Shown: positions 7,901-27,969 of the stretch, piece after piece
How the letters are laid out: every line of letters starts with the position of its first letter
Position numbering within the stretch: position 1 is the stretch's first letter
Assembly: GCA_949358305.1 (NCBI GenBank)
Contig: OX442314.1
Span: 21,700,001 to 21,764,000, forward strand
Length of the DNA stretch: 64,000 nt
Source: Strigamia acuminata
Taxonomy: Eukaryota
Reading direction: 5' to 3'
Notes under the pieces: generated by a model
Seen by the model: the letters and a program-made list of their open reading frames with translations, nothing else
The model's database searches: none
Told to the model about the DNA's origin: nothing
Translations under genes and position numbers: made by a program

Positions 7901-8014
7901 AACTCGGACCGGATTTTTGTTGCATGCACTGCTTCTAGACAACAGAGAATAGGAGATTTACCACCATCTTATGACACTTTATTTGGAAAAAACAACAATA
8001 ACAAAGCAACTTAA
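4963..8014 (+). CDS. Gene B: paralogous CUB-like - LDLa - TM - LPPSY protein (exons 4963-5056, 5124-5353, 5417-5612, 7419-7577, 7641-8014)
   Basis: Same exon and phase structure as gene A. Motifs: LNCCLSV..CLDHLQI, LDLa FICHNSTICLPQSLKCDGEEDCFNGFDEDQVNC, TM GGIAIIVCAVLVMCMW, and LPPSYDTLF. Confidence 0.8.
5946..6675 (+). mobile_element. Internally deleted Tc1/mariner DNA transposon in gene B intron 3
   Basis: TA flanks (5944-5945, 6676-6677) and about 118-bp imperfect TIRs starting CACTGCTGATC and ending GACCAGCAGTG. An inner repeat CAAAATTATAAACTCAC occurs at about 6127. Transposase remnants IMIWCGFS and QDNAPIH are present. Confidence 0.85.
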
Positions 8015-10147
8015 AAACAAAAAAGGAAAAATAATCTATAGTAAAATCAAGAAAATATCACGACTCAAATTGATAAAAGTGATTGAATTTTGTTTTAACT
8101 CACCATTTTTATGTGTACCGAGCTGCTGTATATATAAAATAGGTCTATGATCATTGATATCGTCTACGATCAAAATCAACTCGACGCCATTTTTGCAACA
8201 AAGAAATGAAGCTATCGTCACTTACGTCGACAGTTCGGGGAAGGCTTTTTGTCTTCCGCCGGGTGTCGCTCTGTGCGCATGCGCGTAGAGCAATTAAGTG
8301 GCACCAGCCACATCAACAATGGTAGCATTCGACTAAAATTCGATTCATTAATTTATTTTTTTGCTTGGCACAAACAAGCCAAGCAAAATTTAAAATGTCA
8401 AAAAAATTAATTCCTGGGCTATTGCCAGTCATTTGCTCTATGCGCATGCGCGTAGAGCGACACCTGGCGGAAAATAAAAAGCCTTGTTAGAGCAAAAAAT
8501 ACACTATTGTATTTTCTTTTAAATAAAAAGAATATATCTAAATAATTGTGTGTTTTATTAAAATTTTCGAAATTCACATGACCACATTTCGACGAAACCT
8601 TCAATTTAAAAATAAAAACTAAATATATAACAACTCAAAATTACAGATTACCGAAAAGTGAAAAATTAAAATTAAAACATAAGTTTTTAAACAGCCGTTT
8701 CAGCATAATCTAACTTAATTCGAATTTCAAAACCTTCGTTATCTCGTCCTGATGCATGTATTGGAGGCAACGGTTCGGGAATTATAATGTCAGACGTACC
8801 AGTATCGTTACCGATCGTGTATTTCCTGGAGTATTTACAACTGCGACAGTATTTTCTGCCTACATAGCAAGCAGCTAAGATTAACAAAATTGCAATGCCA
8901 CATGCAGAAATAATTATGTAGTCCTCAACGTCTGATTTTTCACTATTAAAATTCCAAGTCAAGTTGTGGTTGTCTGTGCTGTTTGAGTATGACGCATCTT
9001 GTAAAGAAATAAAATTGGAAATTCATAATGAAATAAAACTGATAATAAATTTAAAATCAAGACAGATATACTTTCAAAATTCGGCGTAATGATTATTTTA
9101 AATCCTGAGGAAGTGGAATAATTGCATTTTCTCGATGAACATCTGTTGCTTAAACTGACAACACCAGGATTTGTTGTTACAATCAATCCATTGGCGGGCA
9201 AATCAGATTTTCGACACATGGCTCTGGTTTGATTTTCAGTTAGATAAAAATTCGATACCTAAAACAAAAGAAAAAATAATTGGGATTATTAAATTATTAT
9301 TTTTCTAAAACTGAATAACATTTTCTTACTGTGACAAAGTCCAAGCAGGTTTTAGTTTCATTGTCGAATGGCAAATTAAGAGAATTAAACTGAAAATTAA
9401 GTTTTGATGAATGCGAGGTAAATTCCATGGTACAGTTGAATCCGTGTTGTTGCAAACTTAGGTCTAATACAAATGAAGAATTTTCCGCCACAAATAAATG
9501 GCCATCTTTAGTGTGAAAACATGGCATAAACATTTCATCTGGAAAAAAAAATAAATTAATATATTCAATCTCAATCAATATTCAAAATCTACTTACGCGA
9601 CACATTAACGTATTGCAATTTGGAAATAATTAAAACAAAAGCTAAAACTGCATAAAAGTGCATGATGTTATAGAATGTCAAACCGTTTAAAAATTTTTGT
9701 CAAACTGATATAAAACGGATTCAATTTGACGCTTTTATACCGATCTGGCGCTAAAAAATAGTGAATTAACCAATGGCAATTGTTTGAATTTGTTACGTAA
9801 TTAAATATTTGAATAATTTGGGACCCGGAATTCAATAAGATTCAGCAATCAGCTTTCCTGCAATGCTACGGTGTTTCGTGGAGTTTTCTGTTCTCATAAT
9901 TCCATTATTTATAAATTTTGTTACTGAATCAAACAAATTGCAGAATTGTCAATTCGAGAATATTTAAATAAAAAATTGTGATTTTTGTGATTTTTATTAG
10001 CATATTTAACAAGTAAATACAGAATAAATACGTTTTATAAGTAAAAGCTTTTATATTTATAAATTAATAAATCGCCGCCAGATTGCGCTAGTATCGGCAC
10101 ATTTCTCCAAAATTCAAAAAATATGAACTCTTTCACATTAAAATGTT
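7963..10147. repeat. Local segmental duplication, copy 1 (tail of gene B + gene C1 + its upstream region)
   Basis: Colinear and highly similar to 11244-12930 joined to 25796-26179. Confidence 0.9.
8687..9663 (-). CDS. Gene C1: signal peptide - CUB-like - TM protein without LDLa, C-terminal PDZ-type motif ETAV (exons 9663-9597, 9538-9330, 9258-9072, 8997-8687)
   Basis: Signal peptide MHFYAVLAFVLIIS; FNCTMEF..CLDFVTV..MCRK CUB-like pattern with the same first three intron phases (1,0,1) as genes A and B; TM IIISACGIAILLILAACYV; tail GRDNEGF...ETAV*. Confidence 0.75.
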
Positions 10148-10782
10148 GTTTAAGTGAAACGCTATTAAATTTGCATACCAGTATACCTGTAGTAATATTC
10201 TTTTTATTGGTTTTTAAATAGTAATCGATTTTAATTTTAACATATAACAGGAGGTGTCAACAAGAGTATTTAGAAAAATAAATTAGTCATTTACGATTTT
10301 ATTTTATGTTTATTTATATATATTTTGATTCAAAATAACGAAGAAAAAATTATTAGGTCATAAAATTCGTATTTTTAAAATGACAAATAAGTTTTAACTT
10401 GTCACGTCAGTCTAAAACGTTTTAAAACTCAGATCGGTCCATCATAATAATATTTACTAATTTAATTAGTTTATTTTATTTTGAAAAAAGCAAAATTCAA
10501 TTTTAGACAAATATTTCATATCCCGGATGTCTCTGATTTAGGTATCAGCAGATAACAAATGTTGAACATCACTTGCGAGTCGTCTCTGCTCCCTACGATG
10601 CATTCAATCAAACCGTCTCATTTATATTTTTTAATCCTTTTTTTACAACAGTTTGTTTTTTCCGTGTATAAATTAGTTAAAATGTTGGTACATCTTTTGG
10701 GTCGTCAAGTGACGTCGTGTTGCTTGATTTTTTACGTTGTCAATCAACGATCATCACTAATGATCGTTGATAGATCTGCTTA

Positions 10783-11250
10783 ACTGAACATAGCTGATAG
10801 CACCACAACAGCATTGTTAAGACAATGCCAGATGGCTGTAAACTTACTCAGAGTGAAATTAACAAAATCTGATTTCATCGTGGATAAGGAGAGTCTCGAA
10901 GAGTGATTACTGCCAAAATTGGGGTATTGATCTGTGGACCTTATGGTATTGTTAAAAAAAATTCAGGATGGAAGAAAGTTCTATCCGCGTGAAACGTGCG
11001 CTTGGTTCACAAGCTGGCAAGAAATGAAAGAGAGAGTTGGGTCCAAATTAGAGCTCAAATTCCTCAAAAAGTGTCACGGCACACTGTTTCCCATACTTTG
11101 GCAATCCATCCACATGTTAGGTTTACAAAATGTAAGCAAAAACAAGACAATGCACTAATCCATGTCTCAAAAGCTACAAAATCCTCGTTTAATCATTATA
11201 AAAATCATTTTAATGGACTGGCCATCGAAAAGTCCATGCTTAAACCATCT
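10783..11250 (+). mobile_element. Degenerate Tc1/Tc3-like transposase fragment
   Basis: Contains QDNALIH and MDWPSKSPCLN (the Tc1 WPxxSPDLNP motif). Blocks match 6206-6240 and 6441-6505 of the intronic Tc1 element. Frameshifted and deleted. Confidence 0.8.
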
Positions 11251-11952
11251 TAAGACACTTTATTTGGAAAAAACAACAATAATAAAGCAACTTAAAAACA
11301 AAAGAGGAAAAATAATTTATAGTAAAATCAAGAAAATATCACGATCAAATTGATAAAAGTGATTGAATTTTGTTTTAACTGAGTATTTTTGTGTGTACCG
11401 AGCTACTGTATTTATAAAATAGGTCTATGATCATTGATATCGTCTACGATCAAAATCAACTCGACGCCATTTTTGCAACAAAGCTTCCGTCACTTCCGTC
11501 GACAGTTCGGGGAAGGCTTTTTGTCTTCCGCCGGGTGTCGCTCTGTGCGCATGCGCGTAGAGCAAATGAGTGGCACCAGCAATATCAACAATGGTAGCAT
11601 TCGACTAAAATTAGATTCAGAAATTTATTTTTTTGACATTTTAAATTTAAAGAAAATTTAAAATGTCAAAAAAATAAATTCCAGGGCTCTTGCCAGTCAT
11701 TTGCTCTATGCGCATGCGCGTAGAGCGACAACTGGCGGAAAATAAAAAGCCTTGTTAGAACAAAAAATACATTATTGTATTTTCTTTTAAATAAAAAGAA
11801 TATATCTAAATAATTGTGTGTTTTATTAAAATTTTCGAAATTCACATGACCACATTTCCAAGAAACCTTCAATTTAAAAATAAAAACTAAATATAACAAC
11901 CCAAAATTACAAATTACCGAAAAGTGAAAGATTAAAATTAAAACATAAGTTT

Positions 11953-12887
11953 TTAAACAGCCGTTGCAGCATAATCTAACTTAATTCGAATTTGAAAACC
12001 GAAATTATCTCGTTCTGATGCATCTATTGGAGGCAACGGTTCGGGAAATACAAAGACAAACTTATCAGTACCGTTAGCTATCGTTATCGTGTATGCCCTA
12101 GAGTATTTAGAAGTGCGTTATGTTTTACCTACATAGCAAGCAGCTAAGAAGATTAATAACAAAATTGCAATGCCATTTGCAGAAATAATCGCCATCATGA
12201 AGTCCTCAGCGGCTGGATTTTTGCAAAAAATAAAATTGGAAATTCATAATGAAATAAAACTGATAATAAATTTAAAATCAAGACAGATATACTTTCAAAT
12301 TTCGGTGTAATGATTTTAAATTTGTATCCTGAGGAAGTGGAATAATTGCATTTTCTCGGTGAACATCTGTTGCTTAAACTGACAACACCAGGACTTGTTG
12401 TTACAACTAAACCATTGGCGGGCAAATCAGATTTTCGACACATGGCTCCGGTTTGATTTTCGCTTAGACAAAAATTCGATATCTAAAACAAAAGAAAAAA
12501 TAATTTTGAATATTTAATTATTATTTTTGTAAAACTGAATAACATTTTCTTACTGTGACAGAATCCAAGCAGGTTTTAGTTTTATTGTCGAATGGCAAAT
12601 TAAGAGAATTAAACTGAAAATTAAGTTTTGATGAATGCGAGGTAAATTCCATGGTACAGTTGAGTCCGTGTTGTTGCAAACTTAGGTCTAATACAAATGA
12701 AGAATTTTCCGGCACAAACAAATGGCCATCTTTACTGTGAAAACATGGCTTAAACAATTCATCTAGGAAAAAAAATAAATTAATATATTCAATCTCAATC
12801 AATATTCAAAATCTACTTACGCGACACATTAACGCATTGCAATTTGGAAGTAATTAAAGCAAAAACTAAAACTGCATAAAAGTACAT
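11953..12887 (-). pseudogene. Gene C2: duplicate of C1 with a premature stop just after the TM and a shortened last exon
   Basis: Exons 1-3 are nearly identical to C1. The last exon reads ...CYVGKT-TAA (12120-12118) and then continues in frame to ...DYAATAV*. The retrotransposon is inserted 43 bp upstream of the ATG. Confidence 0.7.
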
Positions 12888-12930
12888 GATGTTATAGAAT
12901 GTCAAACCGTTTAAAAAATTTTGTCAAACT

Positions 12931-13749
12931 TGTCGCGTCCTACTTGGTATAGGTTTAAATAGCGCTAACGTGTAATACTTTACCTGTGATCAATTATGTA
13001 AATACCCAAATGAATACCAAATGTATGTAAATAAACAGGTAATTTATTCACCAGGCTTTATGCCTTTAAAATACACTCAGTAATAATTCTAGAGTCGACG
13101 TGGTCAGCGTCGAACAAAGGATTTCTCAAGATGGCGTCGTCGATTCCGCGTGGTCGGCGGAACAAAGGCGGCGTCTCGAGTTGTCGTTAATTCGTCACGG
13201 ATTCGTCTTCACGGACGCGGTGGAATGCTCTTTCGAGTCTTCTATCCGTGCCTGTTGTCTAGGGTTTGTTTAGCGTCGCAGAGGCCTCGTCTAGGAACTT
13301 TGGGGTTCCCTACAAAGCACTCGGACACTTACTTCGGCGAATAATCGTCTGGGCGATTATTCTGGGTGATTTCACAAGGGCTATTCTCGTGCTTTCGCAG
13401 GAATAGCTCGCAAGTGACTTCGTGAGAGTTACAGTTTGTACTTTACTCAGCGATCCTCGATCAATCCTAACTTGTAGTTGAAGTTGGCCTGACGGTGAGG
13501 TAGTTGCTGTGTTCTTGGTGTCGTTTGTGTAAGTTCTGACTTTAGGCGGGAAACACAGCCTTTTATGCAGTGGGGTGAAGGGCCGGCGATCAACCAATGG
13601 GGGCTGACCACCAGCCGCTTCCTCCCCCTCGGGGCACACACCTGCCATGGGGAGGTGGAGCCAACTCGGGGGGAACGACTCTTTAATCATAGTGACTCAT
13701 AGGACAAGTATCCGCCCTGGGGGGACACTTATCCAACTGGGTCACCACA
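12931..13749 (-). repeat. 3' LTR (819 bp)
   Basis: Direct repeat of 24977-25795 with no difference seen. AATAAA on the minus strand at 13048-13043. Confidence 0.97.
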
Positions 13750-13761
13750 CGTCCCTCCTCC
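13750..13761 (-). promoter_or_regulatory. Polypurine tract
   Basis: GGAGGAGGGA-CG immediately precedes the TG of the 3' LTR on the minus strand. Confidence 0.85.
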
Positions 13762-13796
13762 AGCTTCGATCTCGGATCGGAGCGATCTCAATTTTC

Positions 13797-16700
13797 TCAT
13801 CGCTCTCCTCTGCGAAGAGCCGGCAGCACTCCTCTGCATGGGCGGAGGATCACGGGTGGCACTGCCGGTGGCGGCGGTGGTAAATCCGGGGGCAGAGAGG
13901 TTGTCAGATCCGCAGGATTTTGTCGCTCGTTGATGAAGTACTGCGGGTGACTGCCGGCTGGCTCGCCAACCAACCCCGTACGCTCATGGATCCAAATCCG
14001 GGTAGACGCGGGGAATCGATCGGGGACGAGTCGGATCCTTCGCGACTCGGCGCTCGATCCGGGTTTCCTGTGGGCCCGTAGGATACGGCGATGGAAGACG
14101 GCGTCCATGGTGGATCGGGCTTCTCTGTTTAGCCATTTGAGGATTGATTCGCCGTGATCGTCGGAGTCAATGATGCGTTGTCGCGTGAACTCCGACATCT
14201 GAAGGAAGGGGTATTCCACTCCCAGCCTCAAATAAAGCTGCGCTGCTGGGGGCGGCGGAGGCGATGGTGGGAGCGGAATCTCCATTGGGCTCTCCAACGG
14301 TGGCGTAGCCGGCTCTGCAGAGAGAGCGGCCAGCCCTGCCGCTGGTGGTGAAGGAGAGGGCAGCGGAGGAGTTCGGGGTCCTCGCTTGGAACGCTTCGGA
14401 ATCAATATGGGTCGATTCGCGTGTCGCTTCTCCTTCGGGAATACCGGCTTTGGGGTCGGTATGTATGGTTGGACCGCCGCCTCTGGGGGGGCGGTCTCGA
14501 TGGCCTGTGGAAGGCTCGCCGCCGTTCCCGGTATCTCCGGAACCTCCCGAATTGTTCGCAACAAGGAAGGGTGGACTCCGGGGTTCCGGTAGCGGAATGC
14601 TAACGAACGCATCTTTGAAAACTGTAGGCCTGGGTTTTCCGTATTTCTGGCCAGGTCGAAGCGCAGCGAGGCGGGCTCAGGAGTCCATCCGGCCCATACC
14701 TGGTACAACGCCCGAGGAAGGTGAACTCCCTCACGGTCGACGATTGTCCAGGCCGCCATAGCTTGCCGACTGTCCAAGAAGACGCCCAGGGATAGCAGCT
14801 GGGCCAGTACGTTCGTCACAGCCAAATTCAAACTGCTCCGATGGCAGGGGTGAGCGCGGTCCGGATTGTCACTGAATTGCTGTGACAACGTCCGCATCTG
14901 TTCGATCGCCCAGTTGATGTGGTGAGTTTGGGCGGCGTCGGCCTGTCGTATGGCCAACTCGGCAATCGCGGGGTTCTCGTATTCGGCCAGATATTCTTGT
15001 AACTCGCTGAGTGGGGGATAGGCCGCTTCACGCCGGCATCGAGCGTCCATCTCTCGCTGGGCGTACCATTCGGCGTTGCGATAAGGTCGACACACTCGTG
15101 GCGTTGGGGGTGACGGTGGACGGCCCAGCCCGGGTAGATTATCGTATCTGACCCGCTTCGGAGCTGGATCCCCCACCGGAATCATCCGGGGAGGGGTCCA
15201 AGCGGTCACGGCTGGGTTTGTACCCTCGAGGAGTGGCGGCCATCGCGATTGCACTTGTGGGGGCACAAGCGCGGTGGGCACAGCCGGTGTTGAGCCCGAC
15301 GGCCGGTTGGCCGCGTATCCTCGGAAGGCGTTCTTCAATGCTACGGCCAGATCCTGTTTTGTAACCGGCCCATCTTTGTCCGACTCATCTGGGGACATTT
15401 GCTCTTCCGTCAACTCTCCCAAATCAATCTCTGCTTGGCGCCTGGACGGTCCAGCCGTGGGTCCGAGACTCTGGGGTTCGGACCGTTTCGCGGCGGCCAT
15501 CTCTCGCTCCTTCTCTAATCCCTTAGCTATCAGGGATTGTGCTCGCAACTTCTGACGTACTTTGCGCTTTCGATTCCTCCGGGTGCTGGCTGCGACGGAT
15601 CTTCGTTGGGCCGTCCTCTGGGGGACGTCCGTCGGAGAATTCGGTCTCTGGTGTGATGAGACGGTTCGTCGCGACGAGGATTGATCCGACGACTGTGTGG
15701 TAATCGCCATGAACAACGAGGATCTTTTCTTTCCTCGATCTTGGTGTGTCTCGGTCCTCGCAGCCCAGTGGGCGGAAGATTCGACTGTTCGCTCAGCCCG
15801 CGCGTCGTCTGGCGAGGCAGGCTCGAGCGTTACTACTCGGCGACACTCCGAGCGCACGACAACTCGAGTTCGGGAACTGGAGCTGCTCGAGCGGCTGCGG
15901 TAGTCGCGGCTCGTTGACGGGCCGGCCTCTATTGGGGAGACGGCCTGTCTTCTTCGTGCGGGTCCGCGTGGGGCGGACTCCGCCGGACGCTTCGATCTTC
16001 TGTGATGGCGGCGACTTCCCAGGATACCAGCGTGGTATAACTGCCACATCTCAGACTGCGTGGCCGTAAAATTCGCCGGCGGTATCCATCTGGGTGTCAG
16101 ATGATCTTCTTCGATGTCGCGAAGCCATCTACGGATTTCTTCGGGGGAGAAACCGTTTCTCTCGAGAACTCGGGTTACTCCGTGAGTCTCGGTGCGCTTT
16201 AAGCGTTTGATCTCGTCGTCCACTATTCTCTGGCGGGCTGCCAAGGTCGGGGCCTCGCTCCACCTATGGGAGGTGTGCAGCTCGGCCACCGTGCCTGGGT
16301 AAGCCTCTTCCAGGTACCCGGAGTAAACGGGGCTCGGCGGATCCGCATCGGGTGGGATCCGCGGCCCCACTCGCTCCCTCATCTCCTTCGTCATGCACTC
16401 GACCAGCGTTTTTGATCGCTCGAATTTTTCCTCGAGGGTCCTGGAATACATCAATCGGATTTTCCAGGCGCTGGTCTCTGCAGGATAGGCCTGCCGCAGG
16501 TAAATCGGCAGGGCTCCGCGAAAGATGTTGTTGGCGGTTGACGCCGTCGGAGGCAGGGCGTCCCACGATTCTAGCGGGTCGACCTGAATAATTTTAGATC
16601 ACAAGATTAATATAATAAATCCCAGTTAACGATGGGGATCAGAAATATGCTCAAGATCGACGGTGGCAGCAACTCCTTTCTTTTGTTGCGGCCGTCGGTC

Positions 16701-17261
16701 TTATTTTCTTGTTTCGCAGTTCTGCGATGATCTCCGCCGTCGTAGCGCTGATCCAACACTACTTTTGAACTCAGGTGATCCGCTTTTTTGGAAGGGGTCG
16801 CAGGCAAAACCGATCGTTAAATTTTAATTTCTTACGTTAAACTTTTTTATTTTAACTCTAATCGTATTTTAATTTATTACGATGTTTAAATTTAAAAGAA
16901 AGAAAACCTTTAGTTTTGGTTTTGGTTTGCCACGACGCCATTCCGCGAACACTTCCTTTGTTCTAGTTTTTTGGCGGCCTTGACTCCGAGGTGAATCTGG
17001 GTCCACTCTCGGGTTTTTAGCCAGCCTTAAATCAACAATAAAACAGAAAGAAATATATCAGTCACAAGTCACGCTCCAATCTGGGTTGGATGCAACAGAT
17101 TCAAAGAATTATGTGATTTCTCTGGGGAAATCACACTAATTTACCTGCAGCGGCGGTTGTTCGTCCCAATTCTCATCTTCTTCTGCATTTACGATTAGGC
17201 CGTCGCTCTCGTCTCTCGACGATGCGCTCGGCTCTAATCGTGGGTTGCGTCGATCGGCCAT
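13797..17261 (-). CDS. Retrotransposon ORF3, about 967 aa, two exons (17261-17145 and 16583-13797); not env-like, function unknown
   Basis: The 885-aa ORF stays open upstream to 16598. A TTATTCAG|GTC acceptor at 16584 and a CAG|GTAAAT donor at 17144 join in phase 0 to a 39-codon exon starting gaaATGG (MADRRNPRLE...QPPLQ|VDPLESW...). Confidence 0.75.
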
Positions 17262-17638
17262 TTCAATTTAGGAAAGTGAAGTTTTTTGAGAGGTCTTTGT
17301 TTTCTCTTTGGGGAGAAGCAAAAAACACGTCTCGTCGTGTTAAAAACAGTCGGAAACTGGGCCCATCGACGCTGAGAATTGTGGGTCTCGAACGCGTCTC
17401 GTATTTTGCGAGATCCGCCGTGCTGGCAATGATGCTACGGGGTCGACCGCGTGGTTTCATTGTCACGTGGTCGCCCGATACGTCATAACTTCTCGTCTGT
17501 TAGTGGTGACTGCGACAATTCGTTGCGAAGTTTGGACTTAGCCAAATTTTCGCGTCTCAACATGTGCAGCAGCTCTCGTAAGTAAATCTTTTTATTTTAC
17601 AAGGCCTCCGCTCCATGTTATCACATTTTCTTTTATTT

Positions 17639-20600
17639 TTAGTTCTTCCCCACGACTTTGCCGTCCCGAATGAACGGATTATTGCTTCGTCGTGGTCGAA
17701 GGTTGATTTTCGACGTGCTCGTAGATCGTGACTCTACTTGCTCGTTCATCTCCGATGTGTTGGCATTTTTCTCATTATTAATTTTTTTATTTTCCATTTC
17801 AGAAGTACATTCTTCTGCTTCCTCCCTCTCCGAAATTGCTTGCTCCGGCTGAGCTGGAGCCTCGTCGGCTGGGGATTCGGCGTCGAAGAATTCATCCTCG
17901 CTCTCCGCTATATTTTCAGCTTCATTTGTTTTTTGGAACGTGTCGACCACGGTGCCCCCTTGGCCGCTGTGTGTCTGACCTTCCAGCCAAATTTCCTGTG
18001 GAAATTCTGGCAGATATGGCCTTAAATCTCGGCCATGTATCGACTGAAAATTTTTGTTGTCCTCTAAGCGGCGCAGTTGGTATGCGTTGCCTCCGTGTTC
18101 GGCCACAATTACATAGGGACCGTCCCTCTTGTCGGCTAAACCTGCGGCGATGCCCCTCGCTGCATTGGACAACGTGTGTGCCTCCTTCCACACTAGATCA
18201 TTCACTTTAAAGTTCGCGAAAGCGAGATCGCCTTCTTTATCTGCGATTCTTTCTCTCATGTTGAAAATATGCGCCATCATATGCTGGTATGTGTCGGATA
18301 TAGTCTGTTCCAACCGGCACACGTACTCGTGTGGGCTCGATGGGTCTAATACGTTAACAGCTTCGGCAACGCGTGGGTCCCATGGCATCCTTAATTCGCG
18401 GGCGAAGTTGAGGTACGCCGGTGAGAATTCGCGTGTTCTTGACACGGTTGAGCGAATGCTGAAAGCGATTTCTCGCAGGTATTCGTCCCATCGATTGTGA
18501 ATATCGGTGAATACTGTCAGCGCATATTTTATGTCTTTATTTAATCTCTCGACTGGGTTTGTCTGAGGATTATACGTGGAGGTGTTTGATGCATCCATTT
18601 TAAATTTTCTACAGAAGTCCTTATATATTCTCGATCGGAATTGGGGGCCGTTATCCGAAATGAGTTTTCTGGGAAACCCAAATCGCATTGCCACGTCGTA
18701 AAGGCACTCGACTATGTTTTCAGCCGAGGGCTTCGCGAGGGCGTACAGCTCCGGCCATCGGGTGGCCACGTCCATAATTACGAGAATATACATGTTCTTG
18801 TTTCCCGTTGTGGGCTTGGGGCCCATCAAGTCTATGCTTAAGCAGTCAAACGGTGCGTAGGGTCCGAGAGACATGGCGTTCCTGGCCACTTTATCTCGCG
18901 GTCTGCACGCTTGGCACCGGGGGCAGTGTCGGATAAATTTCGTTATCTTTTGCCGCGCGCCCGGCCAGAAGAAAAGTTGTTTTACTCGATAAAGGGTCCT
19001 CGCCACGCCAGAATGGCTGGCGAGCGGGTGTCCGTGCATCAGCCACAACAGTCGGGTGTGCAGCGATGCCGGCACGACCACTTTAACCGAGTTTCCCGCT
19101 CCGCTGAGGTCATCTTGAAACGTCGGGTGGTATTTTACCAGGAGTTCATCATCTATGAGGTAGCTTGTTGCTTCTTTGACGAACTGTTTCCGGCGGTGTG
19201 GGTTTGTCATCCCTTCCGGAAATTCGCCGTTCAGCAAATATTGCGTTATAATTTGACATTTTGTGTCTGCTGCCTGGTGTTCGACGAACTCACGTCTCGT
19301 GGGTGGAGCGTATTGTGTTTTTTCTTCAATTTTTGCTGTGAAGGCGCGTAGTAGTGTTTTGTGGGTTTCTCCGGGGGGCGGAGATTGAATTTCGGATGTT
19401 GAATTGTTTGTCCCAGCTGGCTGGTATGTTCGAGTCCAAAAACCACAAAACGTTCTATCTTCAGGCTCCATCACTGGTAGCTCGTTCGCCTTTCGCAAAC
19501 GCCATATTCTCCGTGGAGTCGGGCAGTACAAGAGGTGGGTGTCGTCCTCGCCGTCGTCGTCTGGTCCTTGGGGGTCAGAGGCTGGGGCTCTCGAGAGGGC
19601 GTCGGCCACATGATTGTACTTCCCGGGGCGGTACGTAATTGTTATATCGCACGCCATTAACTCCAGTTGCCATCGTGCGAGTCGGCCGGAGGGTTCCTTG
19701 AGCTTCATCAACCAGCTTAGTGCCTGGTGATCTGTCTGAACCTCGAAGTTCGTGTACTCCAGATAGTCGCGAAATTTCCGAACTGCCCAAATTACGGCTA
19801 GGCATTCTAGTTCCGTTGCCGTATAATTTTTCTCCGCGCCCTGTATTTTTCTGCTTATAAACATACAGGGTACTTCTTGCGAGATTCCGTTGTACACGTG
19901 GGTCTGCAGAAGGGCTGCACCCAGTCCGATTTTACTCGCGTCGGTGTGCAACACGAACGGTCGGTTTAGGTCCGGCAATGGCATCTTTTCGACGTCAGCC
20001 AGCATTTGCTTGATAGTGCTAAATGCGGCCTCGCACTGGACCGTCCACTCAAACTCTTTATCCGTTCGTAAGAGATCCGTTATAGGCGCGGCCACTTCAG
20101 CCAGACCAGAGAGTAGTCGGCCGAAGAAATTAACCATGCCCATGAATCTCTGGACACCTTTTATATCTTCGGGGGCGGGGAATCCGTTTATTGCTTTGAC
20201 TTTTTCGGGGTCAATCGCGATTCCCTCGACTCCTATTCGATATCCTAGGAAGGCAAGCTCTTTCCTGCAAAACTTGCTCTTCCCTGGATGGATGTGGAGT
20301 CCTGCCTTGGCTAGGCGAGAGACCACTCTATCGATGTGGTCTATATGTTCTTCGAATGTGTCCGACGTTATTATGATGTCGTCGAGATACGCCCACACGA
20401 AGTCGTGCAGCATATCTCCCAACACGCTTTCGATCAGTTTCTGGAACGTGCTCGGGGCGTTTACAAGCCCGAACGGCATCACGTTGAACATTAGTCTTCC
20501 TATCGGGGAGTAGAAAGCCGTTTTCAGTTTGTCTTCGGGTTTTAGCTCCACTTGCCAATACCCCTTTGACAGGTCCATGGTGGTTACCCACTTGAACGGG

Positions 20601-21775
20601 CTCAGTTCCCGGAGGATCGAGTCTATAGACGGCATCTGAATCGGGTCTATAACCGTTATCGCGTTCAGGGGGCGATAATCAATGCATAGTCGAGGTTCCG
20701 AGCCTGGACGCATCACCAGGACGATCCGCATGGCGTATTCGCCCAGGGCTTGCGTTACTATGCCCTTGTCGAGCATGTCTTGGCACATTTGCGTCACGAT
20801 GTCTCTTTTCTGGGGGTTCATCCCCTTGTAAGGCACTCGAATCGGCTTGTCTGTGGTTAAGACTATTTCGTGTGTTGCTTCCGTCGTTCGACCAGGTGTC
20901 TTGGTCAGAATTCTTTCATGCTTTCGAAGCACTCGCCTTAGTAGCGATGCCTCGTTAACACGCAGTGCTGCCTCCTCGACCAGGGTGTCCACGACGTTAC
21001 TCCTCTGTAATTCCAGAGTGAAGGCTGCGAAATCGTAATCTTGGACGAATTTTCGCAATCCTCTTCCGTATTCCTCTTTGTCCTTGGCTTCGTCCAGTAA
21101 TTTTTGGGGAACTACGGGGACTGACCGTTCTCCCTCGGGACTTATCCAGTTCCATGAACGGGTTATCGGGTTTGGCTGAATCTTCAGTTTCGCCATGATG
21201 TCCATCCCTAGGAGGAATACTTTGTCGTGGGATGGCAAGACTATGAAGGGGTGGGACAGGTTCCCCCCCGTCCAGTCGATCATGATGCGAACTACGCCCT
21301 TCGGCTTGACGTAGCCGTTGGCGGTGAGCAATTCTACGTTCGCGTTCACTTGTGCCACCTTTTTTTCAATATCCAAGTCCTTTACTATATCTTCGGATAT
21401 GAATGAACGATCTGCTCCTGAATCCAGCAGACCGAACAATTTTTGGTTTTCGATCTCCACTGGCAGCATACACAGAGTTTCGCAATGTGTTTTCGTGACA
21501 TTGCAGTGAAAAACGCGTAATGTTTGGGGCTCAACCTCCAGATTGAACGGGAGGTCCGTCCAATCTATGTCGACCTCCGGCTTCGTTCTCACTTGCATAC
21601 TTGTCAGCGTCACTGTTTCTTCCTTCTTCGGAATGGTCTGCATGCGATCTTTGATCTGTGCCTCTGCCAAGGCATGACCTGCGGGTCCAGTGTGATATTT
21701 CTTCTTTTTAATTTCCGCGGCTGGCGCAGACGAAGCTGAATTTATTTCGGCGACGCCTGCGCTTGGGAGTTTTTT
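17639..21775 (-). CDS. pol: pol (protease, RT, RNase H, integrase with GPY/F motif), expressed as Gag-Pol by -1 frameshift
   Basis: Motifs LLDSGAD, YLDD, HTDAS, H-x6-H...CxxC zinc finger, D-D-E (IDLMGP, SDNGPQF, PVERLN) and DGPYV. The frame is open from 21781 with no early ATG (the ORF track starts at TTG). Confidence 0.97.
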   Translation of the reverse strand, partial: KKLPSAGVAEINSASSAPAAEIKKKKYHTGPAGHALAEAQIKDRMQTIPKKEETVTLTSMQVRTKPEVDIDWTDLPFNLEVEPQTLRVFHCNVTKTHCETLCMLPVEIENQKLFGLLDSGADRSFISEDIVKDLDIEKKVAQVNANVELLTANGYVKPKGVVRIMIDWTGGNLSHPFIVLPSHDKVFLLGMDIMAKLKIQPNPITRSWNWISPEGERSVPVVPQKLLDEAKDKEEYGRGLRKFVQDYDFAAFTLELQRSNVVDTLVEEAALRVNEASLLRRVLRKHERILTKTPGRTTEATHEIVLTTDKPIRVPYKGMNPQKRDIVTQMCQDMLDKGIVTQALGEYAMRIVLVMRPGSEPRLCIDYRPLNAITVIDPIQMPSIDSILRELSPFKWVTTMDLSKGYWQVELKPEDKLKTAFYSPIGRLMFNVMPFGLVNAPSTFQKLIESVLGDMLHDFVWAYLDDIIITSDTFEEHIDHIDRVVSRLAKAGLHIHPGKSKFCRKELAFLGYRIGVEGIAIDPEKVKAINGFPAPEDIKGVQRFMGMVNFFGRLLSGLAEVAAPITDLLRTDKEFEWTVQCEAAFSTIKQMLADVEKMPLPDLNRPFVLHTDASKIGLGAALLQTHVYNGISQEVPCMFISRKIQGAEKNYTATELECLAVIWAVRKFRDYLEYTNFEVQTDHQALSWLMKLKEPSGRLARWQLELMACDITITYRPGKYNHVADALSRAPASDPQGPDDDGEDDTHLLYCPTPRRIWRLRKANELPVMEPEDRTFCGFWTRTYQPAGTNNSTSEIQSPPPGETHKTLLRAFTAKIEEKTQYAPPTRREFVEHQAADTKCQIITQYLLNGEFPEGMTNPHRRKQFVKEATSYLIDDELLVKYHPTFQDDLSGAGNSVKVVVPASLHTRLLWLMHGHPLASHSGVARTLYRVKQLFFWPGARQKITKFIRHCPRCQACRPRDKVARNAMSLGPYAPFDCLSIDLMGPKPTTGNKNMYILVIMDVATRWPELYALAKPSAENIVECLYDVAMRFGFPRKLISDNGPQFRSRIYKDFCRKFKMDASNTSTYNPQTNPVERLNKDIKYALTVFTDIHNRWDEYLREIAFSIRSTVSRTREFSPAYLNFARELRMPWDPRVAEAVNVLDPSSPHEYVCRLEQTISDTYQHMMAHIFNMRERIADKEGDLAFANFKVNDLVWKEAHTLSNAARGIAAGLADKRDGPYVIVAEHGGNAYQLRRLEDNKNFQSIHGRDLRPYLPEFPQEIWLEGQTHSGQGGTVVDTFQKTNEAENIAESEDEFFDAESPADEAPAQPEQAISEREEAEECTSEMENKKINNEKNANTSEMNEQVESRSTSTSKINLRPRRSNNPFIRDGKVVGKN
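21724..21775 (-). promoter_or_regulatory. Programmed -1 ribosomal frameshift signal (A AAA AAC + 6-nt spacer + 9-bp stem)
   Basis: Heptamer at 21775-21769 in the gag frame. Stem GCGCAGGCG (21762-21754) pairs with CGTCTGCGC (21732-21724). pol is in the -1 frame and overlaps gag only across 21781-21742. Confidence 0.9.
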
Positions 21776-24700
21776 GCTAGATTAGTATTTAACTCCATCA
21801 TCATTTTCATCAAGGTTTGCATGATGCCTTTTTCTTTGACGGTTTTTTCGCATTTGTCGGAGTAGTGACCGTATTCTCCGCAGCTGTAACATTTGATGTT
21901 ACTTTTATCCCCTGTGGGAGTGAATCCCGGTTTTTTCGGGACGAAGGGCGTCGGGAATCGTCTTTTTCCTCCCAATGCCCCTCTCGCTTTTGTTGCCTGC
22001 ACGTGTGCTCTGAATTGTGCGATTGCTAAGGCCCGGTGTGCATGGTGCAAATAGGGACCTTGATCGTCGCATCCCGTCGACAAGTTTTCGAGGTGCTCAT
22101 TTAGGGCTTCCTCGTCGCTTGATGCTGGCTCCTCTTCTTTAGCCGTGGCGAGAGGTGTTGTCTCTTCGACTTTCTCCATCTGGGTGGAGTCCGTCGAGGT
22201 CACCTGCATCGCCGTTGCTGCCGGTGCTTTCTTTGGGGCAGCTATCGGGTTGGCTGGAAGAATACTGCCTGCTTTAGGCGTCAGCATTCGTCCGAAGGAT
22301 GCTTCGGTGAGACTCATTATGCCGCTCAAATATTCACTTGGCCTCATTAATTTCTCTGAGGTCTTGTGACGTTCGGCGCTCGTCTGCAACCGTTTCTCGT
22401 GCGCGTCAGCTTCCTCCGGGGGCAGAGTGGCGTAATACCGCTGTTCTATTTCTAACGTGTTTGTTAGAAGATAGTTACTGACATCTTGGTAATCGCCAGT
22501 GCGGGGTGCACGCATGTCTAGCAGAATTCTTTGCGAGTGGGCCGATAATCCTCCGTAAAAGATCATCGTAAAACCAGCGGGGTTTATTTCGTACGGCGCT
22601 CTTGCAAACAGGAGTTTCGCTCGGGCGTCGTAGTCGGCTAATGTTTCTCCTGGGGCTTGTCGTAGACCCCGTAATTTGTTACTGATCTCGTCTGGAGTCT
22701 CGCCGTATCGGAGATCGAAACGGACGAGAAAATCGTCCCAGGTTGGGTTTTTCAGTCCCTGGTACCATTCTCGAGCTGACCCCGTAGTTAGCTCCACTAG
22801 ACCGTGGGTTAGCATGTCGGCGACGGTGGCTTTTGTCGCTTTCTTGATACGCATTACTTCGTCTAGGAAGCGGTCTCCGGCCTTCCACGAACCGTCGAAT
22901 CGTGTTTGTATGTAGTGTTGCCAACGGATGTTACCCGTGGCTTCGCTGCTTGGTTCGTTTCGTACGCCATATTTACGCTTAACCCTCTCTCCAGCGCGAT
23001 TATGTTCGTCGCCTGGATGGCCTAGATCGATTCCTTCTCTTCTGAAAGAGTTCAGCAGGGCTCGGCCTAGCTCAGACATCGTGTAATGTCGGCCAGATGA
23101 GTCCTGAAAGTTCCCTTCCTCCGAACGAGGGTTGGAGCTCCGGGAGGAGCGGTCTGAAGCATTCGGCCGGTTCGACCGGTGCCCATCGCTGTCTTCTTGA
23201 CTCCTCCCTGTAGACGGTCGACTCGGATGGTCGTCGTCCGACGAATCGGAGGGCTCGGAGGGATCTCCTTGGGGGTGAAACCTCGGCCCTCTCGGTGGGG
23301 TCTCTCCGCCAGCCTTCTTCTGTTTCGAGCCTCCGGATGGCGGCGGCTCCCCTCCGTCGTTGTTCTCGTAAAAAGAATGCCATCTGTTTTCCTCGCTTTC
23401 GGGGCGTTCCCGATTTTTATTTGCGTTTTTCTTTTCGAGTAACGCGTCGATGGCTGCTCCCGTCTCGGATCTTTTTGAGGGGTGACGGTCCTTTGTTTTT
23501 GGGACCGACTCGTCTCTCTTTTGAGATTTCCCCCTTTTCGCCGTTTTTGCCGGCTTTGTTGCACCTTCTCCTGTGTCGGTATCAGAGCCGCTGGGGGGTT
23601 CTGGTTTCCGTTTCAGGTTTTCTTCATTTTTCTTCCTGTCCGAGACGTCTTGTGCGTACTCTTTCTGGAACTTTTCTGTCTCCTTCTCCCAGTTTTCGGC
23701 TTCCCATCTTTTTTGCTCATCTATTATAGCTTGTTTCTTCGCTTTGTACTCTTCGGTCCATCTGACTCGATCCCACTCTTCTTTCTCTTTCAGAAACTGT
23801 TCTTTTTCTTTTCTGGCTTCCTCTTCTCTCAACCTCTCGCGATGTTGTTCTTCCCATTTCTGATGTTGTAGAATGGCCTCTTTTCGCAACATTTGTAGTT
23901 TTTCTGTTTTTCTTTGAGCTATTAGCGCTTGAAATTGGTCCTCGTACTCTTGAGCTTCTCGATGTCGCCCTTCTACTGTTGCGTTCCATTCTTTTCGAAT
24001 TTTAGCTTCTCGTTCTTCCCTCATTTTTTGGACCAGTTTCTCTGTTCTCTCGGTGGTTCTTCTCTCGCGTTGCTCCCTTTCTTCCTCTTCCTTCCAGAGT
24101 TCTCGCCGCTCTGCGCTCAGCCTTCGTTGGCGACTAGTCGCTTCTTGTCTGGCTTCCTCGCGGGCCTTCTCTCTGGATTCGTGAAGTGTTCGGTTGGGGT
24201 CTGGCGCGAAACCTCCGGTGTCACTGGGCGTTACCTGGGGCATGGGCGTCTCCGCTGCTGGTCTTGCGACCGGCGTCGGGGCTTGTGCCGCACAGATAGC
24301 GTCAGTGAGTAGGGTAATCGATTCCCAGACTGACGTTCCTACTGGAATGTCTATCATCGCTTTCAGTTGGGCAGCTTGCTGCGTCAACCGAATTAGGTGA
24401 GATACTTCGAAGGAAACAACTGCAGGACTCGCCGTAACTCGGGGGGTTATCGGGGTCCCGCCGTCGTTTTTCCGTGGGGTTTGTTTTACGGACGTCTGAG
24501 CCGTTGGTGGCGATGGGTCTGTGCCGATCGTGACCGTTCTTTTCGGAGCTTCATCCGTCTCCTCGGTCATCAATATCGATACTCGTCCTGGTGATATCTC
24601 GCGAATTTCTTCTCGATTTTCTATGGCTTCCGGATCGGTATCTTCGAAGGGTTGCATATTCAAGGGAACCCGCTCTCGCTCTGGCCCGTCTAGGGCCGCG

Positions 24701-24882
24701 AGCGATGCAGCTTGCTCCTCTTTCTGCGCCTTCGCTCTCCTTTTATTCGCTCGGGCTTTCGCCTTTGCGGACATTTCAGGGACGGGACCATCCGACCTTA
24801 GGTGGTAGTCGGAGGTCCTTTTTCCCTTCTCGGGCATTCTCTGCTCGGTGTCAGACGTGGATTGCTCATCTTTGTCTGACAT
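21742..24882 (-). CDS. gag: gag, unusually long (1046 aa): charged coiled-coil N-half, capsid-like region, one CCHC zinc knuckle
   Basis: First ATG after the PBS; gag-like LTTGSAREWY and LRQAPGETLADY; zinc knuckle CYSCGEYGHYSDKC. Confidence 0.93.
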   Translation of the reverse strand: MSDKDEQSTSDTEQRMPEKGKRTSDYHLRSDGPVPEMSAKAKARANKRRAKAQKEEQAASLAALDGPERERVPLNMQPFEDTDPEAIENREEIREISPGRVSILMTEETDEAPKRTVTIGTDPSPPTAQTSVKQTPRKNDGGTPITPRVTASPAVVSFEVSHLIRLTQQAAQLKAMIDIPVGTSVWESITLLTDAICAAQAPTPVARPAAETPMPQVTPSDTGGFAPDPNRTLHESREKAREEARQEATSRQRRLSAERRELWKEEEEREQRERRTTERTEKLVQKMREEREAKIRKEWNATVEGRHREAQEYEDQFQALIAQRKTEKLQMLRKEAILQHQKWEEQHRERLREEEARKEKEQFLKEKEEWDRVRWTEEYKAKKQAIIDEQKRWEAENWEKETEKFQKEYAQDVSDRKKNEENLKRKPEPPSGSDTDTGEGATKPAKTAKRGKSQKRDESVPKTKDRHPSKRSETGAAIDALLEKKNANKNRERPESEENRWHSFYENNDGGEPPPSGGSKQKKAGGETPPRGPRFHPQGDPSEPSDSSDDDHPSRPSTGRSQEDSDGHRSNRPNASDRSSRSSNPRSEEGNFQDSSGRHYTMSELGRALLNSFRREGIDLGHPGDEHNRAGERVKRKYGVRNEPSSEATGNIRWQHYIQTRFDGSWKAGDRFLDEVMRIKKATKATVADMLTHGLVELTTGSAREWYQGLKNPTWDDFLVRFDLRYGETPDEISNKLRGLRQAPGETLADYDARAKLLFARAPYEINPAGFTMIFYGGLSAHSQRILLDMRAPRTGDYQDVSNYLLTNTLEIEQRYYATLPPEEADAHEKRLQTSAERHKTSEKLMRPSEYLSGIMSLTEASFGRMLTPKAGSILPANPIAAPKKAPAATAMQVTSTDSTQMEKVEETTPLATAKEEEPASSDEEALNEHLENLSTGCDDQGPYLHHAHRALAIAQFRAHVQATKARGALGGKRRFPTPFVPKKPGFTPTGDKSNIKCYSCGEYGHYSDKCEKTVKEKGIMQTLMKMMMELNTNLAKNSQAQASPK

Positions 24883-24956
24883 TTTCTTTCGGTAATTCTA
24901 CGGTTTGGGTTATCTTATTGAGAGATCACAAGTTCAGATTTGAGATTTATTTCTAA

Positions 24957-24974
24957 ATCCCGGACGGGCCCCCA
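24957..24974 (-). promoter_or_regulatory. Primer binding site complementary to the tRNA-Pro 3' end
   Basis: TGGGGGCCCGTCCGGGAT lies 2 nt after the 5' LTR and matches the MLV-type tRNA-Pro PBS TGGGGGCTCGTCCGGGAT at 17/18 positions. Confidence 0.9.
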
Positions 24975-24976
24975 CG

Positions 24977-25795
24977 TGTCGCGTCCTACTTGGTATAGGT
25001 TTAAATAGCGCTAACGTGTAATACTTTACCTGTGATCAATTATGTAAATACCCAAATGAATACCAAATGTATGTAAATAAACAGGTAATTTATTCACCAG
25101 GCTTTATGCCTTTAAAATACACTCAGTAATAATTCTAGAGTCGACGTGGTCAGCGTCGAACAAAGGATTTCTCAAGATGGCGTCGTCGATTCCGCGTGGT
25201 CGGCGGAACAAAGGCGGCGTCTCGAGTTGTCGTTAATTCGTCACGGATTCGTCTTCACGGACGCGGTGGAATGCTCTTTCGAGTCTTCTATCCGTGCCTG
25301 TTGTCTAGGGTTTGTTTAGCGTCGCAGAGGCCTCGTCTAGGAACTTTGGGGTTCCCTACAAAGCACTCGGACACTTACTTCGGCGAATAATCGTCTGGGC
25401 GATTATTCTGGGTGATTTCACAAGGGCTATTCTCGTGCTTTCGCAGGAATAGCTCGCAAGTGACTTCGTGAGAGTTACAGTTTGTACTTTACTCAGCGAT
25501 CCTCGATCAATCCTAACTTGTAGTTGAAGTTGGCCTGACGGTGAGGTAGTTGCTGTGTTCTTGGTGTCGTTTGTGTAAGTTCTGACTTTAGGCGGGAAAC
25601 ACAGCCTTTTATGCAGTGGGGTGAAGGGCCGGCGATCAACCAATGGGGGCTGACCACCAGCCGCTTCCTCCCCCTCGGGGCACACACCTGCCATGGGGAG
25701 GTGGAGCCAACTCGGGGGGAACGACTCTTTAATCATAGTGACTCATAGGACAAGTATCCGCCCTGGGGGGACACTTATCCAACTGGGTCACCACA
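24977..25795 (-). repeat. 5' LTR (819 bp)
   Basis: Direct repeat of 12931-13749, followed by the PBS on the minus strand. Confidence 0.97.
25580..25613 (-). promoter_or_regulatory. Putative LTR core promoter (CATAAAA TATA-like box + TCAGAA initiator-like site, TSS about 25583)
   Basis: CATAAAAG at 25613-25606 lies about 30 nt upstream of TCAGAA. Based on spacing only. Confidence 0.5.
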
Positions 25796-26695
25796 AACTG
25801 ATATAAAACGGATTCAATTTGATGCTTTTATACCGAGCTGTCGCAAAAAAAATAGTGAATTAACCAATGGCAATCGTTTGAATTTGTTACGTAATTAAAT
25901 ATTTAAATAATTTCGGGCCCGGAATTCAGTAAGATTCAGCAATCAGCTTTCCTGCAATGCTGCGGTGTTTCGTGGAGTTTTCTGCTCGAATAATTCCCTC
26001 ATTTATAAATATTGTTTCTGAATCAAACAAATTGCAAAATTTAAATAAAAAATTGTGATTTTTTTATATTTCAAAGTTAATAAATCGCCGCCAGATTGCG
26101 CTAGTATCGGCACATTTCTCCGATTGTCGTGAAGGCGCCGAAAATCGCAAAAAATATGAACTCTTTTACATTAAAATGTAAATCAAAATATATGGACTGA
26201 TGGGGATTTTATTTTAATCAAGATTAGACTAGTTTTCGAATTTATTAACCACTTCATAACGAAAAACGAAGTGGATTTAAAGTTGACCCTGGGAATTAGG
26301 CATCCATTTTTGTTTAAGTATTTAAGTGATGGCGCCACTGTATACAGGAAGTTGAAACCAACGAACAAACACACATAATGTCATCAAGTTAAAAAGCATA
26401 ATGTCCAGTGCACACTAACGAAATCATTTTCTTGCACAACACGATTCGTTGTGCAGTAAACGTCCAACTAATTAGCTTCCAGAATTAAATCCGACTTAAA
26501 AATTAATATATTTATTTACTTTTTTACTTTAAAATTCCACGGATACATTTTTGTGAGCAGTTGTATAATTTTCCCGATTAAAATAATTTTTATGACAATA
26601 TAAAGGTTAAAAGATGTGTCAAAATGGTTTTTCTTAATTAAAACACTAAAATATTACGAATAAGAACTGTTTTCGACTGTTCATTGAACTGACGA

Positions 26696-27188
26696 TTAAG
26701 CATCCGCATTTGGTGGAGAGGATAAAAGTCGCCGATTCTCAGGCTTGAAATCTTCGTCATCACTGTCAAAGCTATCAGAACTAATGTGATTACAAATTTA
26801 AGCTAAAATCTCTTTAGTCACCTAAATATCAATGTTTCTGGTCGATGAGTAACCACCACATGAGCATTTGCAGGAGTTATGAGGACGTTATCAGAATCAG
26901 AAGACTCCGAAATGTCCGGATTCAGAATCACCTTGAATAGGCACGGGCAAATTTGTTGTCGATAGCTCAAACATATCGCAATGACCAATCCAATTGTGGC
27001 TACTCCCATATAAATCCCATACGGTTCTGTCATAACAGGTGCTAATAAAATTATTTTTAGAATTAATACAGTGAGAAATAATAAAAGCATCGTAATATAT
27101 ACTTACGTGTAAGATTAGAACAGTTAATTTTGTAAAAAATAAAAGGAAAAACAAATACCACACGCAAACACATACTTAAATTTGCCAT
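26696..27188 (-). CDS. Small signal-peptide + TM protein with almost no ectodomain (exons 27188-27107, 27041-~26822, possible 26780-26696)
   Basis: Exon 1 MANLSMCLRVVFVFPFIFYKINC ends C|GTAAGT like C1 exon 1. Exon 2 has TM IYMGVATIGLVIAICL. The upstream 27305-27545 resembles the C1 upstream region 10155-10390. The last intron (41 bp) is uncertain. Confidence 0.5.
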
Positions 27189-27969
27189 AATTCACTTTTG
27201 ACCCTTTGCTAGGAAGTTTTACCAATATTGACGAATAAACAGAATTGAATCAAGTCGTTATATATGTTCGAAGTAAAAAATATAGCCAATAGAATGTGTT
27301 TAATTGAAACGCTATTAAATTTGCATAGGGTATACACCTGTAGTAATATTTTTTTATTAGTTTTTAAATAGTAATCGATTTTAATTTTAACGTATATCAG
27401 GAGGTTTCAAAAATAAATTAGTCATTTATGATTTTCTTTTATTTTTATTTAAATATATTTTGATTGAAAATAACGAGGAAAAATTTATTACCGGTAGGTC
27501 ATAAAAATCGTATTTTTTAAAATTTTGTTTAAAATTAGAATGACAAATTAGTCTGCTTTATAGCATCATGGGCTGTTACGCAGACTATACGAAACCGTGT
27601 ACTACGAGCATAATTTTGTTTTTGGATACGTCGGAAGTACTGTAGGTTCACTCGAAAGTGCAACTTGTGATTGGAATGAAATAAAACGCAAACACAGCAG
27701 AAATAGGTTTTTCGATATATTTTATTCATTCTTTCTCGTCCAATCCACTAAATCCGACATTCTATGAGCAGTTAAATATCACTTTCTACGCAAACTGTAC
27801 ATGAAAGAAATCCGTGTTAGAATTTCCTAAATTTGCGAATATATGCTTCAGATTGAAAACACCAACTGAAACAAGAATTTTTTTAACCTATTTTTTTTTT
27901 GTTATAATTTTACATCAAATAATATTTCATGCTCACCCAAAACACATTGATATAATATTGTTTTGCAAA

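Follow-up and report, generated by a model that had tools for sequence, protein, structure and literature searches.

The 64,000-nucleotide (nt) stretch of Strigamia acuminata DNA analysed here (contig OX442314.1, positions 21,700,001 to 21,764,000; hereafter the window, numbered from its first letter) carries on its minus strand a complete Ty3/gypsy long terminal repeat (LTR) retrotransposon of 12.9 kb, whose sense RNA contains nine hairpins with one and the same hexaloop, CCCAGA, on unrelated stems, together with ten variants whose loops likewise open with CCCA. The array is certain, and its architecture resembles that of known viral signals. For its partner and role we infer that the ∼19 predicted hairpins may form a distributed binding element for the protein of ORF3, the third open reading frame (ORF) of the element; this protein would tip the balance from spliced RNA towards unspliced, exported RNA. 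We put the probability of this reading at ∼0.45.

The CCCAGA loop recurs on unrelated stems

All stem-loops listed in the original prediction are found where it had placed them. As it had counted, the element has 13 copies of TCTGGG (the plus-strand form of the loop) when a single LTR is included, versus one in the opposite orientation, and nine of the 13 cap stems. When folded without constraints, 9/13 sense CCCAGA sites give a minimum-energy structure whose hairpin loop consists of precisely CCCAGA. Such hairpins (hereafter core hairpins, Table 1) make up nine of the 39 stable sense-strand hexaloop hairpins, no other loop occurring more than twice. In wider fold windows the probability of the core closing pairs is 0.53–0.99, the site at 17085 going down to 0.31 in the widest window. 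The stems bear no relation to each other, as the mean identity of their 8-nt 5′ arms is 24% and all four Watson–Crick closing pairs are used, which excludes an origin from a duplicated repeat, as had been claimed. The hairpin loops also occupy all three reading frames of the coding sequence, so that a peptide motif is excluded as well. The hairpins at 15460–15484 and 14472–14496, unrelated in sequence, are built alike, with two pairs, then a C bulged on the 3′ side, then seven more pairs.

The shuffle check proposed with the original prediction was run, and neither dinucleotide nor codon shuffles reproduce the core hairpins. Dinucleotide block shuffles give a mean of 0.026 core hairpins (at most two in 1000 shuffles) versus the nine observed, and shuffles of the flanks give 0.038 (at most one in 500). 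When the codons of the three ORFs are shuffled synonymously, 0.06 are obtained versus five observed in coding sequence (at most two in 2000). The count of the hexamer is only mildly enriched (13 versus 6.6 expected, P = 0.015); the signal is the pairing around the hexamer, not the number of hexamers.

Two sets of gypsy loci served for comparison, namely 80 metagenome loci (the best 80 of 489 Pol matches) and 24 gypsy Pol-bearing contigs from prokaryote metagenome assemblies. With a Pol identity of only 28–48% and flanking DNA included, these 104 loci can act as negative controls but do not test conservation. Hairpin loops are opened at 0/146 sense CCCAGA sites and 7/1506 CCCA sites in the best 80 loci, and at 0/47 and 2/790 sites, respectively, in the 24 contigs. 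In the host flanks of the element, 0/13 CCCAGA sites form such loops. The same-loop array is not general to gypsy elements. Three control loci (L023, L024 and L059) also have recurrent loops, but there the stems are nearly identical, and we attribute them to tandem duplication. One of these, the distant gypsy locus L023, has eight GCUAU-loop hairpins 5′ of gag (positions 1–500), mostly tandem duplicates of two or three stem types. The 24 contigs from prokaryote assemblies (L081–L104) are likely eukaryotic contamination.

A wider family of CCCA loops

With the CCCAGA sites excluded, 10 of 72 CCCA sites open hairpin loops of 5–7 nt, against a background of 1.45% (p ∼1e-7), and CCCA is the best of 256 prefixes for loop opening, followed by CCCC at p = 0.003. 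Seven of these variants lie in coding sequence versus 0.86 in 1500 codon shuffles, and three in non-coding sequence versus 0.17 expected. The variant at 15278 vanishes in wider folds and that at 23273 depends on window size. The fixed feature is therefore a stem followed directly by CCCA, of which CCCAGA is the preferred form. The loop had been called invariant; the nine identical loops are real, but they are the top class of a wider family rather than strictly invariant.

Among the DNA reads, four indels cluster at 17284–17320, in and beside the variant hairpin at the first predicted acceptor (17293–17326), at about one-fifth of the depth in one run and more in the other, so that this hairpin is not fixed among copies. 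No core-hairpin variant is present among the listed changes (∼40 of ∼830 substitutions and 12 of 79 indels), which are too few to mean anything.

Placement near predicted splice sites

Hairpin density per kb is 3.8 in the spacer between pol and ORF3, 3.7 in the LTR and 2.8 in ORF3, whereas leader plus gag has 0.6 and pol 0.5. Only two hairpins lie in leader plus gag, even though gag is in large part low-complexity. The spacer and ORF3, which make up 32% of the element, hold 12 of the 19 hairpins (P = 0.006, post hoc). Retroviral psi lies in the leader after the primer-binding site; the short leader 3′ of that site in this element has zero hairpins of the CCCA family.

Splice sites were predicted with a simple home-made consensus scan. 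Within the element, CAG/GTAAAT at 17144 scores highest as a donor and the tract that ends at 17306 highest as an acceptor tract, whereas the LTR donor at 25378 ranks third among distinct donors, behind one located in U3. An ATG 39 codons 5′ of donor 17144, within a predicted mini-exon, is in phase with the AG at 16584 that opens ORF3, and three core hairpins lie directly 3′ of the same donor. A loop lies no more than 25 nt away from three of the four predicted splice sites (P = 0.002 versus the whole element and 0.02 versus its non-coding parts, post hoc). Packaging, export and splicing had all been suggested as roles. Because density in gag and pol is low, the leader is empty and three of four predicted splice sites lie this close to a loop, the placement favours control of splicing or export over a classical psi. 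The claim of a multi-copy RNA signal is well supported, as the hairpins persist in three ORFs and in all frames where codon shuffles fail to yield them; that the signal binds a protein we infer.

The ORF3 protein

ORF3 has no Pfam family match and no terminal membrane anchor was found in it, and an errantivirus-type env was therefore rejected. Judged by its sequence, ORF3 is not Env, that is, not a membrane fusion protein. Its sole hydrophobic window (1.75, residues 585–603) is located in the middle of the protein, within a predicted bundle of helices, and does not correspond to the peak of P0121, the single relative that an HMMER search of 1.84 billion representatives returned (E = 9e-8). Word-based protein searches gave no relative of ORF3 or Gag, and the ESM Atlas gave no usable match. 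None of the 104 control gypsy loci encodes an ORF3 relative, and locus searches with Pol in viral contigs, and with P0121 in viral and genome contigs, were without any match.

ORF3 and P0121 share two domains in the same order, at residues 6–108 (30% identity) and 525–644 (23%), with a basic linker between. The homology starts at residue 6, before the first in-frame Met at residue 45, which indicates that the start codon of ORF3 probably comes from upstream, as the mini-exon would provide. P0121 has an acidic N-terminal extension where the ORF3 start would be supplied, and the comparison supports a spliced start exon for ORF3. A basic stretch at residues 335–347 lies in the best-predicted helix, and residues 593–601 follow an export-signal-like pattern.

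A putative distributed response element for ORF3

In the mechanism that we propose, the RNA would be spliced by default from the LTR donor at 25378 to the mini-exon (17305–17145) and on to ORF3 at 16583. ORF3 would enter the nucleus via its basic linker and bind CCCA loops, CCCAGA being the best site. Bound to the hairpins next to or around both donors and the first acceptor, it would hinder splicing and/or mark the RNA for export, and gag–pol RNA would thereby accumulate in unspliced, exported form, available for packaging and for making Gag and Pol. The eight hairpins within ORF3 would add binding sites and a feedback on the mRNA of ORF3 itself. More tentatively still, invertebrate gypsy elements may have independently evolved the switch of complex retroviruses, with a new family of spliced, non-Env ORF3 proteins reading a lineage-specific loop code that is repeated along the RNA, across coding sequence and splice sites alike.

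Several points weigh against a response element for ORF3. The predicted spliced mRNA of ORF3 would retain about half of the hairpins, as 8/19 are in the ORF3 exon and the R-region copies are exonic too. The splice-site and regional statistics are post hoc and the splice scoring is home-made; no hairpin lies within 300 nt of the second acceptor, at 16584, which the simple scan does not rank with its best acceptors. The linker of P0121 is lysine-rich and not arginine-rich, and neither the basic stretch at 335–347 nor the export-signal-like stretch at 593–601 is visibly retained there. ORF3 itself has no RNA-binding domain recognised by Pfam, and a fold search gave no match at E ≤ 0.001, the models being of low confidence (mean predicted local distance difference test scores of 42 and 51). 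Finally, a graded set of hairpins with the same loop is, as far as the accessible text of PMC6281560 goes, the textbook signature of packaging signals.

Packaging is the strongest rival, though we regard it as unlikely. Gag, through its CCHC knuckle or its basic regions, would bind CCCA loops of graded affinity and so select and compact the RNA at assembly. Many stem-loops with a shared loop do occur along the genome, the copies spanning the whole RNA from R to R. A single loop motif on variable stems, in strong and weak classes, is the pattern of MS2 and other RNA viruses, and the packaging signals of MS2 and of the hepatitis B virus (HBV) pregenome likewise sit on unrelated stems and within coding sequence (PMC6281560, accessible text). 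In comparison with the MS2 and HBV signals described there, the present motif is far more exact, with nine identical hexaloops, and is depleted from genome-specific regions: the parts present only in genomic RNA (gag and pol) have the lowest density, and the leader after the primer-binding site is empty. Conversely, the predicted spliced mRNA would keep many copies although it should escape packaging. In addition, the loops have few G residues, and it is exposed G that CCHC knuckles usually read.

Less likely again is a host RNA-binding protein or modifying enzyme, such as a KH protein specific for C-rich loops or a splicing factor, that would set splicing, stability, localisation or translation. 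The nearness to predicted splice sites suits a host splicing regulator equally well, and simple retroviruses export their RNA via structures that bind host NXF1 (PMC10309623, accessible text). However, the array is absent from the 104 gypsy loci of other hosts, and known host-read motifs do not account for it. The consensus iron-responsive element (IRE) carries a bulged C five pairs beneath its CAGUGN loop; here the loop differs and only 2/9 core hairpins have a C six bases 5′ of the loop. A search of Rfam gave no match at E ≤ 1. The motif of NSUN6, which sets type II 5-methylcytosine sites, is CUCCA in a hairpin loop (bioRxiv 2020.10.03.324707, accessible text) and occurs in 0/19 loops.

That the antisense strand is functional, with loops ending in UGGG in antisense RNA or minus-strand DNA, or that the loops pair with another RNA, is very improbable. 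Several hairpins are equally or more stable on the antisense strand, and G–U pairs, from which the original prediction had argued for the sense strand, give a weaker case than stated: within the first seven pairs of the nine core hairpins there are three on the sense versus two on the antisense strand. Over all 19 hairpins the tally is 11 versus 3, the variants having been selected on the sense fold. The antisense strand keeps the loop register at only 3/19 sites, and the integrase hairpin does not fold in antisense. The functional strand is thus likelier to be the sense RNA, with moderate support. As for pairing, CCCA is complementary to the start of the primer-binding site, but a kissing partner with a UGGG-containing loop is absent among the sense hairpins. 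Chance, codon bias or a duplicated repeat is hardly credible and, for the array as a whole, refuted (individual variants such as 15278 and 23273 may still arise in this way), since the mild hexamer enrichment and the use, at the integrase hairpin, of the Pro-Arg codons of a motif conserved in relatives are set against at most two core hairpins in all three shuffle nulls, stem arms only 24% identical, loops in three frames and recurrent control loops that proved to be tandem duplicates.

Comparison with known systems

The closest precedent for an ORF3-dependent switch is Cer1 of Caenorhabditis elegans, in which the env-position ORF encodes the C-terminal half of CERV, a protein made from spliced mRNA and required for export of the genomic RNA; its authors propose splicing by default when CERV is absent, and in the main text no RNA element is mentioned to which CERV would bind (PMC10309623, accessible text). 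CERV has a Cys-rich loop and a G-like domain, and no likeness to ORF3 is seen in a comparison by description only, limited to the same text.

The proposed arrangement is similar to that of HIV-1 Rev and its Rev response element (RRE) in that a putative regulator encoded by the element, a predicted spliced RNA and a basic motif are combined with a structured cis element. It differs in that the RRE is one large intronic domain, whereas here 19 small hairpins are spread over coding exons, introns and R. Elements of the RRE type are confined to introns; with 8/19 hairpins in the ORF3 exon, such confinement is not found. The core loop shares C1, G5 and A6 with the loop of the trans-activation response (TAR) hairpin. 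A TAR-type element was rejected, as the first hairpin lies ∼185 nt after the predicted start and there are many copies, versus a single bulged hairpin at the 5′ end.

A cross-loop C1–G5 pair, as in the pseudotriloop hexaloops of the IRE, HBV epsilon, the brome mosaic virus promoter, TAR and a foamy virus hairpin, is possible in 9/9 core hairpins (PMC3884659, accessible text). The further rules given there, a 3′ pyrimidine bulge and G–C closing, do not apply, as position 6 is A and only 1/9 stems is closed by G–C. None of the ten variant loops scored as a C1–G5 hexaloop. A literature search, in which subscription journals were scarcely covered, gave no account of such an array for any LTR retrotransposon, in agreement with the original prediction that no gypsy element of this kind has been described.

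Significance

How unspliced LTR-retrotransposon RNA is exported and selected for packaging is largely an open question, and most env-position ORFs in LTR retrotransposons are without known role (PMC10309623, accessible text). CERV is the only worked-out case, and no RNA target is named for it. The present element offers an exact, short target, a CCCAGA loop on any stem, beside a candidate binder, ORF3. If the proposal is true, the hairpins would provide the first case of an RNA response element read by a CERV- or Rev-like retrotransposon protein, and one that is distributed rather than a single RRE. An RNA–protein pair specific for the loop and indifferent to the stem might also become a new tool for tethering, as MS2 and boxB are.

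The retrotransposon and its parts

Assignment to Ty3/gypsy follows from the order protease, reverse transcriptase, RNase H, integrase and from the two LTRs, TG...CA ends, target duplication and primer-binding site (Table 1); the last we take to be of the tRNA-Pro type. The closest solved relative of Pol is Ty3 Gag-Pol (E = 2e-105). The CCHC knuckle of Gag matches Pfam zf-CCHC at E = 0.002, weaker than the curated cutoff. In the gag/pol overlap, the heptamer A AAA AAC at 21769–21775 (minus strand), after which a stem is possible, is a candidate −1 frameshift site. The LTR poly(A) signal (25089–25097) lies 3′ of the predicted LTR donor and overlaps one donor-like GT, another following at 25029 (minus strand); this layout may bear on suppression of 5′ LTR polyadenylation.

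Two DNA runs were mapped on positions 12000–27000. Depth over the element is hundreds of times that of the flanks, and the joint across the empty site is found in both runs, which points to an abundant family and a recent insertion. Diverged pieces of the element (80–88% identity) are also present in the DNA runs.

Table 1. Positions of the hairpins and other features of the retrotransposon, in window coordinates
Feature	Position	Strand	Details
Ty3/gypsy LTR retrotransposon, full length	12931..25795	-	TG...CA ends; 4-bp target duplication AACT at 12927-12930 and 25796-25799
5′ LTR	24977..25795	-	819 bp, identical to 3′ LTR
3′ LTR	12931..13749	-	819 bp
Predicted promoter	25580..25613	-	TATA-like CATAAAA ∼30 nt 5′ of initiator-like TCAGAA; predicted start near 25583
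Predicted LTR splice donor	25371..25381	-	GAA/GTAAGT, GT at 25378; between two family hairpins
Predicted poly(A) signal, 3′ LTR	13043..13048	-	AATAAA; 5′ LTR copy 25089-25094
Primer-binding site	24957..24974	-	directly 3′ of 5′ LTR
gag	21742..24882	-	1046 aa counted from ATG; long low-complexity N-terminus; one CCHC knuckle
pol	17639..21781	-	protease, reverse transcriptase, RNase H, integrase; −1 frame
Predicted mini-exon	17145..17305	-	ATG at 17261 (39 codons); acceptor AG ends 17306, donor GT at 17144
ORF3 main exon	13797..16583	-	928 codons after predicted acceptor 16584, in phase with mini-exon
Core hairpin, 5′ LTR	25385..25408	-	9-bp stem; predicted R region
Core hairpin, 3′ LTR	13339..13362	-	copy of 25385..25408
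Core hairpin, gag	22166..22197	-	begins 6 nt after weaker donor-like site at 22203
Core hairpin, integrase	18661..18680	-	GFPRKL codons; one G-U pair
Core hairpin, predicted intron	17111..17136	-	just within intron, 3′ of donor 17144
Core hairpin, pol-ORF3 spacer	17068..17096	-	least stable of nine in wide folds
Core hairpin, spacer	16983..17014	-	second pair G-U, bulged A
Core hairpin, ORF3	15604..15634	-	
Core hairpin, ORF3	15460..15484	-	2 bp, bulged C, 7 bp
Core hairpin, ORF3	14472..14496	-	2 bp, bulged C, 7 bp
Variant CCCAUU, U3	25627..25662	-	15-bp stem with 4 G-U pairs; in RNA only via 3′ LTR copy 13581-13616
Variant CCCAAA, LTR	25330..25364	-	just 3′ of LTR donor; 3′ LTR copy 13284-13318
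Variant CCCAA, gag	23258..23284	-	window-dependent
Variant CCCAA, integrase	18804..18830	-	
Variant CCCAAA, acceptor	17293..17326	-	5′ arm is pyrimidine tract; loop end holds AG of predicted acceptor 17306
Variant CCCAU, ORF3	16252..16286	-	
Variant CCCAC, ORF3	15955..15985	-	
Variant CCCAAUA, ORF3	15916..15949	-	
Doubtful variant CCCAC, ORF3	15264..15289	-	probability 0 in wider folds
Variant CCCAUA, ORF3	14391..14427	-	

Other features of the window

The element sits within older repeats, as pieces of 9753–10355 recur at 25847–27490. A ∼1.4 kb duplication of 87–97% identity is formed by 7963–9396 and 11244–12620, and 5944–6677 resembles a miniature inverted-repeat transposable element, with long terminal inverted arms, 88–94% complementary, and ∼490 nt between them. 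At 603–1613 on the minus strand lies a fragment of a second reverse transcriptase (Pfam RVT_1, E = 5e-11), probably from a non-LTR element. Host genes with short introns occupy 31610–63568; they include a protein kinase, presumably Wee1-like, a UDP-glycosyltransferase, Nup205/192 and a gene that we take to be synaptotagmin-like.

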